The notes beneath the pieces are model-generated. The model did not search any database, had not been told where the DNA came from, and was given only the letters and a program-made list of their open reading frames with translations. From Escherichia coli (GTDB lineage: Bacteria > Pseudomonadota > Gammaproteobacteria > Enterobacterales > Enterobacteriaceae): a stretch of DNA of 64,000 bases. Both the position numbers and the translations under genes were made by a program. The stretch lies in the NCBI RefSeq assembly GCF_003334765.1, contig NZ_QOWT01000014.1, one strand, 5' to 3'. Positions 2,738-62,747 of this stretch are shown here, piece by piece. Position 1 is the stretch's first letter; each line of letters starts with the position of its first letter.

Positions 2738-2977
2738 TGTAAAGCATCCACAATAGAAGAAGGATGCCGCAGGTTTCATCAATATTACGCGATGATGAGA
2801 ACCAGATGCGACGTTGGCCGGCAGGTCTTCGGGCTTGGAGGGGTATCTAAGATACTAAGAGATGATGACTTCCCACCGAATGGCAGTGTCCGCATAACGC
2901 AATCATCGCACCTTTCCTTACCGCTGCGCGTCAGCTCCAGATTCGCACTGGATTCCCTATTAACTCACAGGACCGGC
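2738..2977 (-). promoter_or_regulatory. cobalamin (adenosylcobalamin) riboswitch in the btuB 5' leader
   Basis: Minus-strand sequence from 2977 reads GCCGGTCCTGTGAGTTAATAGGGAATCCAGTGCGAATCTGGAGCTGACGCGCAGCGGTAAGGAAAGGTGCG... through to the btuB ATG, matching the ~240 nt btuB leader as I recall it. Confidence 0.85.
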
Positions 2978-3105
2978 AAGTGGATGCTACAGGTTGTAAC
3001 AAGTTACTGTCCAGACGTAGCTCACAAATAGGAATTCATCAAGATCTGGACATCTGATGAGCAATCCCTACAATCGCCGCGTACTTTAATTTTTCAGGAT
3101 ACATC

Positions 3106-5585: not shown

Positions 5586-6986
5586 ATGCCACATTCCTAC
5601 GATTACGATGCCATAGTAATAGGTTCCGGCCCCGGCGGCGAAGGCGCTGCAATGGGCCTGGTTAAGCAAGGTGCGCGCGTCGCAGTTATCGAGCGTTATC
5701 AAAATGTTGGCGGCGGTTGCACCCACTGGGGCACCATCCCGTCGAAAGCTCTCCGTCACGCCGTCAGCCGCATTATAGAATTCAATCAAAACCCACTTTA
5801 CAGCGACCATTCCCGACTGCTCCGCTCTTCTTTTGCCGATATCCTTAACCATGCCGATAACGTGATTAATCAACAAACGCGCATGCGTCAGGGATTTTAC
5901 GAACGTAATCACTGTGAAATATTGCAGGGAAACGCTCGCTTTGTTGACGAGCATACGTTGGCGCTGGATTGCCCGGACGGCAGCGTTGAAACACTAACCG
6001 CTGAAAAATTTGTTATTGCCTGCGGCTCTCGTCCATATCATCCAACAGATGTTGATTTCACCCATCCACGCATTTACGACAGCGACTCAATTCTCAGCAT
6101 GCACCACGAACCGCGCCATGTACTTATCTATGGTGCTGGAGTGATCGGCTGTGAATATGCGTCGATCTTCCGCGGTATGGATGTAAAAGTGGATCTGATC
6201 AACACCCGCGATCGCCTGCTGGCATTTCTCGATCAAGAGATGTCAGATTCTCTCTCCTATCACTTCTGGAACAGTGGCGTAGTGATTCGTCACAACGAAG
6301 AGTACGAGAAGATCGAAGGCTGTGACGATGGTGTGATCATGCATCTGAAGTCGGGTAAAAAACTGAAAGCTGACTGCCTGCTCTATGCCAACGGTCGCAC
6401 CGGTAATACCGATTCGCTGGCGTTACAGAACATTGGGCTAGAAACTGACAGCCGCGGACAGCTGAAGGTCAACAGCATGTATCAGACCGCACAGCCACAC
6501 GTTTACGCGGTGGGCGACGTGATTGGTTATCCGAGCCTGGCGTCGGCGGCCTATGACCAGGGGCGCATTGCCGCGCAGGCGCTGGTAAAAGGCGAAGCCA
6601 CCGCACATCTGATTGAAGATATCCCTACCGGTATTTACACCATCCCGGAAATCAGCTCTGTGGGCAAAACCGAACAGCAGCTGACCGCAATGAAAGTGCC
6701 ATATGAAGTGGGCCGCGCCCAGTTTAAACATCTGGCACGCGCACAAATCGTCGGCATGAACGTGGGCACGCTGAAAATTTTGTTCCATCGGGAAACAAAA
6801 GAGATTCTGGGTATTCACTGCTTTGGCGAGCGCGCTGCCGAAATTATTCATATCGGTCAGGCGATTATGGAACAGAAAGGTGGCGGCAACACTATTGAGT
6901 ACTTCGTCAACACCACCTTTAACTACCCGACGATGGCGGAAGCCTATCGGGTAGCTGCGTTAAACGGTTTAAACCGCCTGTTTTAA
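5586..6986 (+). CDS. sthA: soluble pyridine nucleotide transhydrogenase
   Basis: 466 aa ORF with FAD-binding GSGPGG and the disulfide-oxidoreductase fold; recognised as SthA/UdhA. Confidence 0.95.
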
Positions 6987-7886
6987 AACTTTATCGAAAT
7001 GGCCATCCATTCTTGCGCGGATGGCCTCTGCCAGCTGCTCATAGCGGCTGCGCAGCGGTGAGCCAGGACGATAAACCAGGCCAATAGTGCGGCGTGGTTC
7101 CGGCTTAATGCACGGCAGATAAACAACCCCATCGCGTTTGCGCTCCGGCGGCACAGCCAGCGCTGGCAGTAAAGTGATCCCGCTACCTGCCGCCACCATG
7201 TTGCGCAGAGTTTCCAGGCTGGTCGCGCGGAAGTGTGTATCTTCATCCGCCCCGGCTTCAAAACAGAAACCCATTGCCTGATCGCGCAAACAGTGACCAT
7301 CTTCCAGCATCAGCAGTTTTTCCCCTGCCAGATCGGCCATCGGTACGCATTCGCGGTTCGCCCACGGGTGATCTTCATAGATAGCCAGCAACATTGGCTC
7401 ATCAAACAACGGCACTTCAATGAATGCTTCGCTCTCTTTCACCAGCGCGAGGATCACGCAATCGAGTTTGCCGCTGTCCAGTTGCGCCAGTAACTGGTGG
7501 GTCTGTGCTTCATGCAGATACATTTCCAGCTTTGGAAAGGTCTGGTGCAGCATAGGGATAATATGCGGTAGCAGGTACGGTCCAACTGTGGGAATCAAAC
7601 CAATGTGCAGCGGTCCGGACATCGTCTCGCCCTGCTGGCTTGCCATCTCTTTAAGGACTTTCACCTCACGCAGCACGGTACGCGCCTGATCCACCAGCAG
7701 CATTCCCGCCTGGGTGAACAACACTTTACGGCTGGTCCGCTCCAGCAACATCACGCCCAGCTCATCTTCCAGCTTACGAATTTGCCCGCTAAGCGTCGGC
7801 TGGCTAACGTGGCAGGAATCTGCCGCACGCCGAAAATGGCGGTGTTCAGCCAATGCCACCAGGTACTCAAGATCACGAATATTCAT
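6969..7886 (-). CDS. oxyR: LysR-family hydrogen peroxide-responsive regulator
   Basis: Recognised OxyR sequence ([40 protein letters not shown]...); start at MNIRD gives 305 aa. The 3' end overlaps the sthA 3' end by 18 bp. Confidence 0.95.
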
Positions 7887-7980
7887 TATCCATCCTCCAT
7901 CGCCACGATAGTTCATGGCGATAGGTAGAATAGCAATGAACGATTATCCCTATCAAGCATTCTGACTGATAATTGCTCAC
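7887..7980. promoter_or_regulatory. divergent oxyR / oxyS promoter region containing the OxyR operator
   Basis: Position between the oxyR start and the oxyS 5' end; AT-rich with ATAG-containing repeats. Exact OxyR contacts not resolved by eye. Confidence 0.6.
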
Positions 7981-7981
7981 A

Positions 7982-8098
7982 GAAACGGAGCGGCACCTCT
8001 TTTAACCCTTGAAGTCACTGCCCGTTTCGAGAGTTTCTCAACTCGAATAACTAAAGCCAACGTGAACTTTTGCGGATCTCCAGGATCCGCTTTTTTTT
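7982..8098 (+). ncRNA. oxyS: OxyS small regulatory RNA with intrinsic terminator
   Basis: Sequence GAAACGGAGCGGCACCTCTTTTAACCCTTGAAGTCACTGCCCGTTTCGAGAGTTTCTCAACTCGAATAACTAAAGCCAACGTGAACTTTTGCGGATCTCCAGGATCCGC followed by T8 matches OxyS as I recall it; divergent from oxyR. Confidence 0.9.
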
Positions 8099-8152
8099 GC
8101 CATAAAAAAGCCCGGCGATAAGCCAGGCTCAAATTTATACATATAAATGTTC

Positions 8153-9526
8153 TTACCCTAACCGAGCCTGCGCAAAAGCAATCGCCTGCGCCACCTGCTG
8201 CGGTGAGACGCCGCCTTTTGCCGCACGCTTGTCGAGGCACGATTGCAGCGACAGAATCGGATAGACATCTTCGTCAATCACCTGACTGAATTTCTGCAAC
8301 TCACTGAGCGGCAGATCTTCCAGCGGTTTGCCCTGACGAATGGCTTCCACCACCGCTTCACCAACAATATGGTGCGCCTCGCGGAACGGTACGCCTTTCG
8401 CCACCAGATAATCCGCCAGTTCGGTGGCGTTGGCGTAACCCTGCTGAGCCGCTTCCTGGCAACGTGGACGTTTCACCTGAATGCCGTCCAGCACCAGCGC
8501 CGCCATATGCAGGCAGTCCAGCCAGGTATCGAGCGCGTCGAACAGACCTTCTTTGTCTTCCTGCATATCTTTGTTGTAAGCCAGCGGCAAACCTTTCAGC
8601 GTCATCATCATGCCGGTTAACGCCCCCTGCACCCGGCCGCATTTACCGCGAATCAGCTCCAGCGCATCCGGGTTTTTCTTCTGCGGCATTAATGATGAAC
8701 CGGAAGTCACGCGGTCAGAAAGCTCCACAAACCCCGCTTCGCCGGTGTTAAAGAAAATCAGATCTTCAGCAAAACGCGACAGATGCACCATGCCGATAGC
8801 GGCAGCAGAAAGCAGTTCCAACACATGGTCACGGTCAGAAACGCTGTCGAGACTGTTACGGGTCGCCGAAGCAAAGCCCAGCCAGCCTGCTAACTGTTCA
8901 CGGTCGATTTCATAGGCCGTTCCCGCCAGCGCGCCACAGCCTAGCGGGCTGACATCCAGACGCTTAAGCGCATCCTGCAAACGGCTTTCATCACGCGCCA
9001 GCATCTCAACATAGGCCAGGCACCAGTGCGCGAACGTCACCGGCTGGGCGCGTTGCAGGTGAGTGTAACCTGGCATTACCGCGTCCTGATTGTTTTGTGC
9101 GGTTTCCACCAGCGCCGATTGCAGCTGCCGGTTAGCCGTCAGTAACTCGCTAACGGTATCTTTGCACCACAGTTTCAGGTCAGTCGCTACCTGATCATTA
9201 CGGCTACGCCCGGTATGCAGCTTTTTGCCTAACTGGCCCACTTTGTCGATCAGTTTGCCTTCCACCCAGCTATGGATATCTTCGGCGTCGCTTTCAAGGA
9301 TTTGTTGTGGCCTGGCGCGAACATCTTCCAGCAACACGTTCAGCGCCTCTTCCAGTTGCGCCTGCTCTTCTGCGGTTAACACGCCTACCGTGACCAGGGC
9401 TTTGGACCAGGCCACAGAGCCAACAATATCCTGCTCCGCCAGACGGTAATCAAAGCGCAGTGAGTCGTTGAATTGTTTGAACCGTTGATCTGCTGCCTGG
9501 GTAAAACGCCCGCCCCAAAGTGCCAT
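8153..9526 (-). CDS. argH: argininosuccinate lyase
   Basis: 457 aa ORF recognised as ArgH ([34 protein letters not shown]...). Confidence 0.95.
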
Positions 9527-9586
9527 AACTCTGTTTCCTTATTTTGAAATTCAATGCCGGAAAGCTGCGCCTCCGGCCAACAAAAC

Positions 9587-10363
9587 TTAAGCTAAAATCC
9601 GCGTACCCATCGGCATACCGTTAAACAGTGCCGGAAGCTGCTCCGCATGACGCCAGGAGGCGATATCTACCGGACGGCCCAGCGTGCGGGCCGCATCCAG
9701 CGCCGCGTTCACTTTCACTATCATGCCGTCAGTAATAATGCCCTGCTCAATCAGTTGTTCTGCTTTCGCGGCGGTCATTTCGGCAATGCGTTGCCCTTTG
9801 CCGTCGAGAATGCCGCTGACGTCGGAGAGCAAAATCAGATCCGCGCCCAGCGTTGCCGCCAGCGCCGTTGCCGCCTGGTCGGCATTGACGTTCATCAGTT
9901 GCCCTTCGTCTGTTACGCCAATGGAGCTGACCACCGGCAGATAACCGTTCTCCAGCAAGGAGTTGATAAGCTTAGGCGAACCTGGCTGCGCCAGTCCAAC
10001 ATGACCTAACTCTTCATCAAGCTGGGTCACTTTGACGCTGTCGCCGTCACCGAGAAACAAACCTACGGCCGCAATCTGATGTTTCTTCGCCCATGCCAAC
10101 AGGGTTTTATTTGCCGTTCCCGCCAGTGCTCCGGTGATAATGTCTATCTGATCAGCAGGCGTCACCCGCAGGCCGTTTTTCTTTTTCACCGGCAGATTCA
10201 GCCCTTTCATCAGCTCATCCACCACGCAACCGCCGCCGTGCACAATCACCAGCGGACGCTGATGTGACTCACGATAATTCACCAGTGCGCTAAACAGACG
10301 TTCCAGCGCCTCTTCACTATCCAGCAGTACGCCGCCCAGTTTGATAATTAATGGATTCATCAT
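9587..10363 (-). CDS. argB: N-acetylglutamate kinase
   Basis: Recognised ArgB; start set at [11 protein letters not shown] (258 aa) rather than the upstream in-frame Met of the ORF track. Confidence 0.93.
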
Positions 10364-10370
10364 TGCACCC

Positions 10371-11375
10371 TTAAATAAGAGACTGCGTTTCCGCATAGCC
10401 GAAACGAATATTGGCGCACTGTACCGCTTGTGCCGCCGCGCCTTTCAGTAAGTTGTCTTCGGTCGCCACAATAATCAGATGCTCGCCCTGAACGGCAAAC
10501 CCGATATCGCAAAATGGCAGCCCAACGACATTTTTCAGCGCCGGAACGCCTTTGTCATACAGCCGCACCAGCGGTTTATGGGCATACGCCTGCTGTAACA
10601 CTTGCGCGACTTGCGCCTGGGTCACACCCGATTTCAGGCGGCAGGTAATGGTTTCGAGAATGCCGCGCGGGAAATTGCCCAGATGTGGGGTGAAGATAAC
10701 GTCAGCACCGAGGTGTGTGGCGATCTCTGGTTGATGGCGATGAGTAAAGACGCCATACGGTTGCAGGCTAACTTCACAAAAGCTGTTTGAAATGGCCGCT
10801 TTACGCCCTGCACCGCTCACGCCGCTGGTGGCGTTGATCACCGGCCACTGATTGAGGTCAAGAAGATCGGCATCAATCAACGGTTTCAGCGCCAGCTGTG
10901 CCGCCGTCGGATAACAGCCCGGCACCGCAATCAAATTCGCTTCTTTTAATTTATTACCGCACCACTCCGCCAGACCGTAGGCTGCCTGTTCCAACAGTTC
11001 CGGGTATTGATGGGTAAAGCCGTAATATTTTTCATAGAAGGTGGCGTCGTTAACACGAAACGCGCCGGAAAGGTCGAACACCACGCAGCCCGCTTCAAGA
11101 AACTGCGGCGCTAAATCGTGGCTAACTTCATGGGCGGTGGCGAGAAACACTACGTCCACCCCTGGGCTAAACTCGCTGATATCCGACATCGGCTGCAACG
11201 GCAGATCAACGATGCCTTTTAGCTGCGGATGCAAATCGGAGATTAACTTTCCCGCATCATTGCTTTGCGCTGAAACAGTCAAAGCGGTTATGTTCATATG
11301 CGGATGGCGATTTACATAGGTCACTAGCTCTGCGCCAGCGTAGCCGCTGGCACCCACAATCAGCGTATTCAACAT
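10371..11375 (-). CDS. argC: N-acetyl-gamma-glutamyl-phosphate reductase
   Basis: 334 aa ORF recognised as ArgC, with the active-site Cys region (AVPGCYPTA). Confidence 0.95.
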
Positions 11376-11469
11376 CGGGGCTATTCACCTTCTTATGTCT
11401 GGTTGCCAGGTTAAACGTAAAACATTCACCTTACGGCTGGTGGGTTTTATTACGCTCAACGTTAGTGTA

Positions 11470-11510
11470 TTTTTATTCATAAATACTGCATGAATATTGA
11501 TACTATCATG
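11470..11510. promoter_or_regulatory. tandem ARG boxes (ArgR operator) in the divergent argE / argCBH control region
   Basis: TTTATTCATAAATACTGCATGAATATTGATAC contains two adjacent 18 bp palindrome-like boxes of the TGAATwwwwATTCA type. Confidence 0.75.
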
Positions 11511-30237: not shown

Positions 30238-32472
<2,235 letters not shown>

Positions 32473-32746
32473 TTATAATTGAATTAATCCACGGATGCGA
32501 TAGTTGAGATCTTACATATTGTTGGTTAAAGAGATGTAGATCAAATTGATCTTAATTAAGCTTTTTTGATTATGTCCGAATTCGGACAAATGCTTTATAA
32601 AAAAGGGTTTTAGCTTCATATCCTTCAAGTAATGAGGGAGAAAACAAGGCTGATAACCTTATTTTCCCGCCCTCATTTCGAGGCAGCATTTTGTGCTCTG
32701 TTTAAAATTTGTGATCACTGTGTGATTTTCACAAAAGCCACACTAT

Positions 32747-33640
<894 letters not shown>

Positions 33641-33985
33641 TTACCTCATCAATCGCTTGTAGTTATATGTTGTGTTGTGCACATCTATCCGTTTAGACGT
33701 CCAGATGTAAAGATGAAGGAAAAGCCGAAGGGCGTCAACCGAAAAATGACCAATGATGGTGAGGAAAAATCAGGGAAGATGAAAAAACTTCAGGATGGTA
33801 AGAAAAAGAAAATCCGGTATGCAAAGCAAACCGGACTGCAAATATAAACTAACCATGTACTTATTGCTTCTTGCCGGATTCGTCGTAAACGCTTAATCCG
33901 GCCTAATCCTATGATAATTCAATATATTTCATTAGAAACCATAAACCCGAAAACATGAGTACCGGGCATTATTAAATTTCTGAAA

Positions 33986-57583: not shown

Positions 57584-57683
57584 TGCCGGATGCGGCGCGA
57601 ACGCCTTATCCGGCCTACAAAAGTTTGCAAATTCAATAAATTGCAGAATTCATGTAGGCCTGATAAGCGAAGCGCATCAGGCA
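57584..57683. repeat. RIP-type BIME (third copy in window, opposite orientation)
   Basis: TGCCGGATGCGGCGCGAACGCCTTATCCGGCCTACAA - AAGTTTGCAAATTCAATAAATTGCAGAATTCATG - TAGGCCTGATAAGCGAAGCGCATCAGGCA. Confidence 0.85.
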
Positions 57684-62662: not shown

Positions 62663-62747
62663 GCAGGCAGGATAAGGCGTTTACGCCGCATCCGGCATTT
62701 GAGCAGGATGCCTGATGCGACGCTGATAGCGTCTTATCAGGCCTACA
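62663..62747. repeat. REP pair (BIME) downstream of cpxA
   Basis: GCAGGCAGGATAAGGCGTTTACGCCGCATCCGGCA and inverted GCCTGATGCGACGCTGATAGCGTCTTATCAGGCCTACA. Confidence 0.85.

Follow-up and report, generated by a model that had tools for sequence, protein, structure and literature searches.

Since the 1990s, the divergent oxyR-oxyS locus has served as a model case of redox-switched transcription and of Hfq-dependent small RNAs, and synthetic biology employs the oxyS promoter as a standard H2O2-inducible part. The promoter is used as an H2O2/OxyR-inducible reporter (PMC11053109), and the RNA itself is induced by 0.2 mM H2O2, as observed on Northern blots (PMC7815308). OxyS binds Hfq and base-pairs with the fhlA and rpoS mRNAs; NMR combined with SAXS resolved it into four stem-loops and confirmed pairing of stem-loops 1 and 3 (SL1, SL3) with fhlA (PMC10578473). 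In addition, compensatory mutation of the chromosomal oxyS gene confirmed the sponge RNA IspZ (PMC7815308). Regarding transcription, the passages of PMC5002191 that summarise Toledano et al. 1994 state that OxyR represses its own gene in both redox states and that oxidized OxyR activates oxyS. According to the same passages, oxidized OxyR is bound to four adjacent major grooves and the contact pattern of the reduced form is shifted; binding with redox-shifted contacts is credited there to Toledano et al. 1994 and Tartaglia et al. 1992.

Divergent pairs of a regulator and its target with similar control regions are known from other loci. In ilvY-ilvC and cynR-cynT, assigned to 'group two' in PMC5002191, the regulator likewise diverges from its target across three inverted repeats, namely a high-affinity distal site, an activation site by the target -35 and an overlapping third repeat over the -35, and autorepression takes place regardless of inducer (PMC5002191). 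The oxyR-oxyS unit differs from both in that its target is a non-coding RNA and that the regulator is switched by a disulfide of its own instead of by a small-molecule ligand. The gcvA-gcvB pair likewise consists of genes for a LysR-type activator and a trans-acting, Hfq-dependent sRNA that diverge from a shared intergenic operator (PMC5002191), but has two inverted repeats instead of three, responds to glycine and specifies an RNA unrelated to OxyS. In Yersiniaceae, Hafniaceae, Pectobacteriaceae and Vibrionales, a peroxidase gene diverges from oxyR at the very position of oxyS, again with OxyR sites in the spacer and with H2O2 induction (PMC8825220). These loci encode a protein, whereas the Enterobacteriaceae, to which OxyS is restricted (PMC8825220), keep a 3′ remnant of about 110 nt alone, fused directly to the OxyR-dependent promoter. 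Krieger et al. 2022 (PMC8825220) proposed as the origin of OxyS the 3′ end of the peroxiredoxin-glutaredoxin mRNA that other Enterobacterales and Vibrionales encode at this position under OxyR control.

Identity of the oxyR-oxyS locus and structure of OxyS

The window analysed here is a 64-kb stretch of Escherichia coli DNA, to which all positions refer unless stated otherwise. Its segment 6376..9376 corresponds to the reverse complement of MG1655 4157000..4160000 with base-for-base identity over 3001 bp, and coordinates convert as window = 4166376 - MG1655 position. In the curated MG1655 record, oxyS (b4458, ncRNA) occupies 4158278..4158394, that is 7982..8098 of the window, and the oxyR (b3961) coding sequence starts at 4158490, that is 7886. 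The range 7887..8098 exactly comprises the spacer and the 117-nt oxyS of the K-12 annotation. Compared with E. coli K-12 OxyS (RF00035, b4458) and oxyR (b3961), the sequence, position, orientation, spacer, operator and terminator were identical, and no difference was found. A 601-bp query around oxyR-oxyS found a match in each of the complete E. coli genomes (5426/5426), in many of them at 100% identity. The locus is almost certainly the oxyR-oxyS divergent unit of E. coli K-12 with one shared, redox-switched operator, and no observation spoke against this. It is already known in full detail and holds nothing new, and the main mechanism has been tested experimentally on this exact, K-12-identical sequence; the finding changes nothing in current understanding. 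Sequence identity, element positions, motif significance, cross-species conservation and RNA covariation were computed in this work, while redox-dependent footprints, mapped ends, peroxide induction and targets were taken from the literature.

The oxyR coding sequence (6969..7886, minus strand) is an open reading frame for a LysR-type peroxide sensor of 305 aa and is annotated in identical E. coli records. The protein starts from the codon at 7886..7884 with MNIRDLEYL and matched the OxyR equivalog NCBIfam NF008361 over residues 1-305 of 305 with 632.9 bits (cut-off 329). Both redox cysteines were present in the translation, in the contexts DGHC(199)LRD and MGFC(208)FEA. The start of the P1 transcript is given in the supplement of PMC7967276 as MG1655 4158457, corresponding to 7919, which yields a 5′ UTR at 7887..7919 (minus strand) with the Shine-Dalgarno sequence GGAGGATGG (complement of 7891..7899); mean column identity of this UTR to the window base was 90% in 78 species. 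An extended reading frame of 315 aa (ATG at 7914..7916, 10 codons upstream) was rejected as a mechanical ORF without support; the curated start at 7886 is preceded by a strong Shine-Dalgarno sequence. An 87-aa frame running antisense through oxyS (7977..8240, minus strand) was likewise regarded as a mechanical ORF without support.

The OxyS small RNA (7982..8098, plus strand) lies in the oxyR-argH intergenic region, divergent from oxyR, between the oxyR start at 7886 and the argH stop at 8153 (both minus strand). It measures 110 nt in the classical form, which ends at 8091, and 117 nt with the U-tract, as in the K-12 annotation. Rfam family OxyS (RF00035) matched 7982..8091 on the plus strand over its full length (model 1-110 of 110) with 139.5 bits (E = 4.6e-29; gathering score 75). 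Folding of the single sequence gave three stem-loops with a minimum free energy of -32.9 kcal/mol (z = -2.84 vs dinucleotide shuffles). SL1, the long 5′ stem at 7982..8028 (plus strand; Rfam structure), folded with -15.3 kcal/mol and carries in its loop CCCUUGAAG (nt 22-30), the reported pairing site for the fhlA coding sequence (PMC10578473). A second, short stem-loop, SL2 (GAGU/ACUC, 8031..8044, plus strand), was present in both the Rfam model structure and the MFE fold. It is followed by an A/U-rich linker at 8045..8071 (plus strand), which represents the Hfq-binding region and was in part assigned as SL4 by NMR (PMC10578473). The terminator scan placed an intrinsic terminator at 8072..8098 (plus strand), composed of a hairpin at 8072..8090, which at the same time provides the pairing loop for the fhlA RBS, and a U8 tract at 8091..8098. 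The hairpin, GCGGATCTCCAGGATCCGC, is GC-rich with 8 bp and -11.2 kcal/mol, and exactly eight T follow.

An earlier note, drawn up from the bare letters, had placed the OxyS start about 95 bp from the oxyR start codon on the opposite strand, and the gap 7887..7981 indeed measures 95 bp. Its figure of 94 bp for the spacer was off by one, 95 bp being also the gap in the K-12 annotation (4158394 to 4158490). The strong hairpin plus T8 that it had read at the end of the RNA was borne out by the terminator scan, and the covariance-model scan that it had proposed returned the full-length RF00035 match. A transcript with these ends under oxidative stress, on whose existence the note had staked its reading, had already been tested for in the literature and was found. 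RNA ends, spacer and shared-operator logic had thus been placed to within one base, and the practical value of the locus is that of a positive control for reading sequence without tools. PGAP-annotated RefSeq records of E. coli carry no oxyS feature between oxyR and argH, which is found in the curated MG1655 record only; routine annotation alone would show an 'empty' intergenic region of 266 bp at oxyS.

Shared operator and promoters

To locate OxyR sites, we scored every position of the 64 kb against the OxyR consensus ATAGnTnnnAnCTAT-n7-ATAGnTnnnAnCTAT, used in the form ATAGnTnnnAnCTATn7ATAGnTnnnAnCTAT (37 bp, 20 specified positions). The best match in the window, 16/20, was located inside the spacer at 7908..7944. 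Markov simulations and a binomial calculation put the chance expectation for such a score at 0.01-0.025 per 64 kb, and for the spacer by itself at about 2e-5. A strict search of the same consensus with <=3 mismatches gave no match, because the operator site has 4 mismatches. The complete OxyR operator (7908..7953) comprises three inverted repeats, IR1 ATAGTTCATGGCGAT at 7908..7922, IR2 ATAGCAATGAACGAT at 7930..7944 and IR3 AACGATTATCCCTAT at 7939..7953. IR1 and IR2 together constitute the 37-bp four-element site for oxidized OxyR, and IR3 represents an overlapping third half-site. Phylogenetic footprinting had previously defined three 15-bp ATAG-n7-CTAT repeats centred at -66, -44 and -35 relative to oxyS +1 (PMC5002191), and the centres of IR1, IR2 and IR3 agreed with these values to within one base, with +1 taken as 7981 or 7982. 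This range reflects an uncertainty of 1 nt, different sources giving the oxyS +1 as 4158394 or 4158395. The four ATAG-type elements are arranged at helical-turn spacing, and the site abuts the oxyS -35 (7944..7949).

The oxyS promoter (7944..7973, plus strand) consists of a weak -35, TTATCC at 7944..7949 (3/6), an 18-nt spacer and the -10 GATAAT at 7968..7973 (5/6); these elements were read directly from the letters for a start at 7982. A generic sigma-70 scanner did not call this promoter, because its -35 (3/6) falls below the scanner threshold. Such a weak -35 is as would be expected for an activator-dependent promoter. On the opposite strand, the promoter scan detected oxyR P1 (7927..7956, minus strand) with 9/12 matches plus TG, made up of the -35 TTGATA at 7956..7951, an 18-nt spacer and the extended -10 TGc-TATTCT at 7935..7927, which ends 7 nt upstream of the published start at 7919. 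The two promoters are interlaced, with starts 63 bp apart and each -35 lying within the spacer of the other. Both the P1 -10 (7932..7927) and the P1 start are found within the OxyR site 7908..7944, so that the promoter of the regulator overlaps the operator, while the site ends at the oxyS -35. A further minus-strand candidate of the sigma-70 scanner, TTATCA at 7972..7967 with GATAAT at 7948..7943, was not adopted, since it had no support from a mapped start.

The earlier note had reasoned that the spacer must hold the operator and both promoters. This proved right for the operator, the oxyS promoter and oxyR P1; 'must' is too strong, since a second oxyR start (P2) inside oxyS is reported in the text and supplement of PMC7967276 that deal with it. 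The inference that the arrangement allows autorepression of oxyR and peroxide induction of oxyS was well founded, as the geometry of operator and promoters fits the published mechanism (PMC5002191).

In the published mechanism, which almost certainly holds for this locus, H2O2 is sensed by OxyR, a LysR-type tetramer, via formation of the Cys199-Cys208 disulfide, and OxyR binds within the 95-bp spacer to a single operator (7908..7953). Whether oxidized or reduced, it sits over the -10 hexamer and transcription start of P1 (7935..7919) and thereby represses its own gene, oxyR. Oxidized OxyR occupies the four successive ATAG-type elements (7908..7944) beside the weak oxyS -35 and recruits RNA polymerase, and OxyS of about 110 nt is then made from 7982 and terminated at the hairpin 8072..8090 with its U8 tract. 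The contacts of reduced OxyR are displaced in the direction of 7939..7953, where they lie over the oxyS -35, and oxyS is not activated. Once formed, OxyS acts in trans on fhlA, rpoS and other mRNAs, with Hfq as its partner.

Conservation and covariation across species

Orthologs were collected by a DNA-pattern scan of species-representative genomes with a conserved string from the linker, AACTAAAGCCAACGTGAAC, which is therefore invariant by construction in the ortholog set. The string was found in 81 stretches, all of them from Enterobacteriaceae or metagenome-assembled genomes of that kind. Wherever the flank was long enough (77/77 loci), a divergent oxyR start codon was located 146-180 nt upstream of the anchor, and argH was convergent downstream of OxyS in 73 loci. 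The spacing within the control region was rigid: the oxyR ATG and the last base of the oxyS -10 lay 87 bp apart in 78/78 species with zero indels, and the whole oxyR-oxyS spacer measured 94 or 95 bp across the 78-row alignment. For the 37-bp site, the mean column identity to the window base was 0.93, while IR3 and both -35 hexamers reached 1.0 (78 species). In the same set, the ATAAT of the oxyS -10 and the oxyS -35 were invariant, the T-run of OxyS was 99% conserved, and the orthologous operators scored 15-17/20 against the OxyR consensus. Within the RNA, SL1 and SL2 showed mean identities of 0.66 and 0.53. With the operator at 0.93-1.0 as compared to these values, the control region is, judging by the alignment, under tighter constraint than the RNA that it drives.

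When 73 orthologs were aligned by sequence alone (MAFFT and RNAalifold), the terminator was the one element to receive support, because the 5′ half of OxyS is too variable. We thus built a covariance model from 15 close relatives, using the Rfam pairs of SL1 and of the terminator, and this model matched 82/82 sources. SL2 was left out of the model, as the orthologs align ambiguously and inconsistently there; other genera form a GAGAG-UUU-CUCUC hairpin by means of 2-4 nt that are absent from E. coli. In the resulting alignment, 86.3% of cells were standard pairs, as compared to 30-49% after sliding the partners by 1-3 columns, a large margin even though the counts lean towards the model structure because the alignment was fitted to the covariance model. 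Double-sided changes were observed in 15 of the 20 pairs, including all 13 pairs of SL1 (78 distinct sequences), and none of 500 shuffles reached the covariation score of OxyS. Taken as a whole, the pattern indicates that the SL1 and terminator stem-loops are maintained by base pairing.

The terminator stem was kept in the 78 sequences, with a double change from C-G to U-A in Escherichia. The pair concerned, 8077/8085, is U-A in E. coli and its closest relatives; in total, 73 C-G, 4 U-A and 1 U-G were counted. In the alignment it stands out as a clean compensatory change within an otherwise invariant stem. In a group of 10 loci from Klebsiella and Raoultella, the linker and the terminator of OxyS were kept and the 5′ stem-loop was a different, shorter one (e.g., GAGGCAAAAGUCAGAAAAUCACGACAUUGCCUC). 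The 5′ domain of these RNAs has no CCCUUGAAG loop, through which E. coli OxyS pairs with the fhlA coding region, and SL1 may act on another set of targets in this clade.

Alternative readings and neighbouring elements

Besides its action in trans, OxyS or the transcription of oxyS might act in cis on oxyR, either through convergent transcription or through RNA-RNA pairing. We consider such coupling unlikely. It is suggested by the P2 start, which the text and supplement of PMC7967276 place at MG1655 4158351, that is 8025 on the minus strand; because this position lies inside oxyS, an oxyR leader from P2 would be antisense to OxyS. According to the same parts of that paper, P2 emerged from a re-analysis of published dRNA-seq sets, is the major start in stationary phase and in minimal medium, and lowers OxyS when in use. 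A possible weak promoter at the right distance from 8025 could be read from the sequence, with TTGGCT at 8060..8055, 17 nt and GAAACT at 8037..8032 (minus strand). However, its hexamers match at 7/12 positions and the promoter scanner did not call the pair; moreover, the candidate -35 lies within the Hfq linker, whose conservation already has an explanation. The sections of PMC7967276 that describe P2 contain no functional test of it, and they are inconsistent on the overlap between the P2 leader and OxyS, which is 41 bp in the text and 44 bp from the coordinates of the table. The cis reading depends on this one dRNA-seq re-analysis, and the classical model accounts for the known regulation without P2. 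It appears quite improbable that OxyS is not purely trans-acting and that an antisense overlap with about the first 44 nt of oxyS leads, mainly in stationary phase, to interference or to pairing between OxyS and the oxyR 5′ UTR. If true, it would add feedback between OxyS and its own activator OxyR.

The classical trans-acting OxyS is also to be weighed against the view that the sequence is a mere remnant of the peroxiredoxin-glutaredoxin gene and not a functional sRNA. Other Enterobacterales do carry this gene at the OxyS position (Krieger et al. 2022, PMC8825220), and OxyS aligns to its last ~65 coding nt, 3′ UTR and terminator (PMC8825220), yet the same paper argues that the remnant was turned into a functional sRNA. 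The linker and the terminator are nearly invariant and SL1 pairing was kept via compensatory changes in 78 species, which argues for selection on the OxyS RNA. Together with the published regulation of fhlA and rpoS and the compensatory-mutation tests on IspZ and OxyS (PMC10578473, PMC7815308), this refutes the remnant reading in practice, and we give it almost no credence. That the OxyS hairpin and T-run instead form the terminator region of the convergent argH, which ends 54 bp away on the opposite strand, with the Rfam and motif matches being coincidental, is hardly conceivable: a separate terminator for argH, with T-rich sequence behind it, lies on the minus strand at 8130..8108, the Rfam E-value for OxyS is 4.6e-29, and the reading is excluded by the strand asymmetry of the T-run (T8 on the plus strand alone, AAAAG on the minus-strand side) and by strains in which 3.1 kb are inserted between the two genes and hairpin and T8 stay with oxyS.

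The argH intrinsic terminator (8108..8130, minus strand) was identified as GAGCCTGGCTTATCGCCGGGCTT with -15.5 kcal/mol and a T-rich tail. It is separated by 10 bp from the T-run of OxyS, and both convergent terminators fit within 59 bp. In 1872 of the 5426 complete E. coli genomes, the match to the window breaks exactly at 8098, the last T of the OxyS tail. There, the 54 bp at 8099..8152 are replaced by ~3.1 kb with a gene for an MFS transporter and manD (D-mannonate dehydratase). Further parts of the insert are a REP-like element and an argH terminator other than that of the window, and the match starts again at the argH stop (8153); insert-bearing E. coli loci are L002 (insert at 8400..11500 of that locus) and L003. 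The same manD/MFS cassette was found in Escherichia whittamii and two further Escherichia species, and other inserts of 2.5-2.8 kb were present at the same spot in Citrobacter braakii and one C. amalonaticus. Across the species loci, argH follows 9-217 nt beyond the OxyS terminator in 69/73, and 4 contain inserts of 2.5-3.1 kb.

Elsewhere in the window, the second-best match to the OxyR consensus (15/20) was located at 33652..33688, 15-51 nt upstream of the metF start, where it overlaps the tandem MetJ-box repeats ACATCTGG ACGTCTAA ACGGATAG ATGTGCAC. With 0.12-0.24 such matches expected per window and the MetJ-box overlap, a new OxyR site at metF was rejected as probably a chance match. The window also contains katG (30238..32418, minus strand), the catalase-peroxidase gene and a classical OxyR target. 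The third-best match (14/20), at 32478..32514, is positioned 60-96 nt upstream of the katG ATG, as for an activator site, with a score that by itself is not above chance (0.9-1.9 expected per window). A cobalamin riboswitch (RF00174, 87 bits) was detected at 2803..2992 on the minus strand, upstream of btuB in matching annotated E. coli records. Further Rfam matches above threshold were naRNA4/CssrE at 62666..62743 (plus strand), ES036/CssrF at 57620..57661 (plus strand) and 38226..38267 (minus strand), the ClpQY (hslVU) promoter element at 43911..43968 (plus strand) and the L31 ribosomal-protein leader at 39247..39299 (minus strand).
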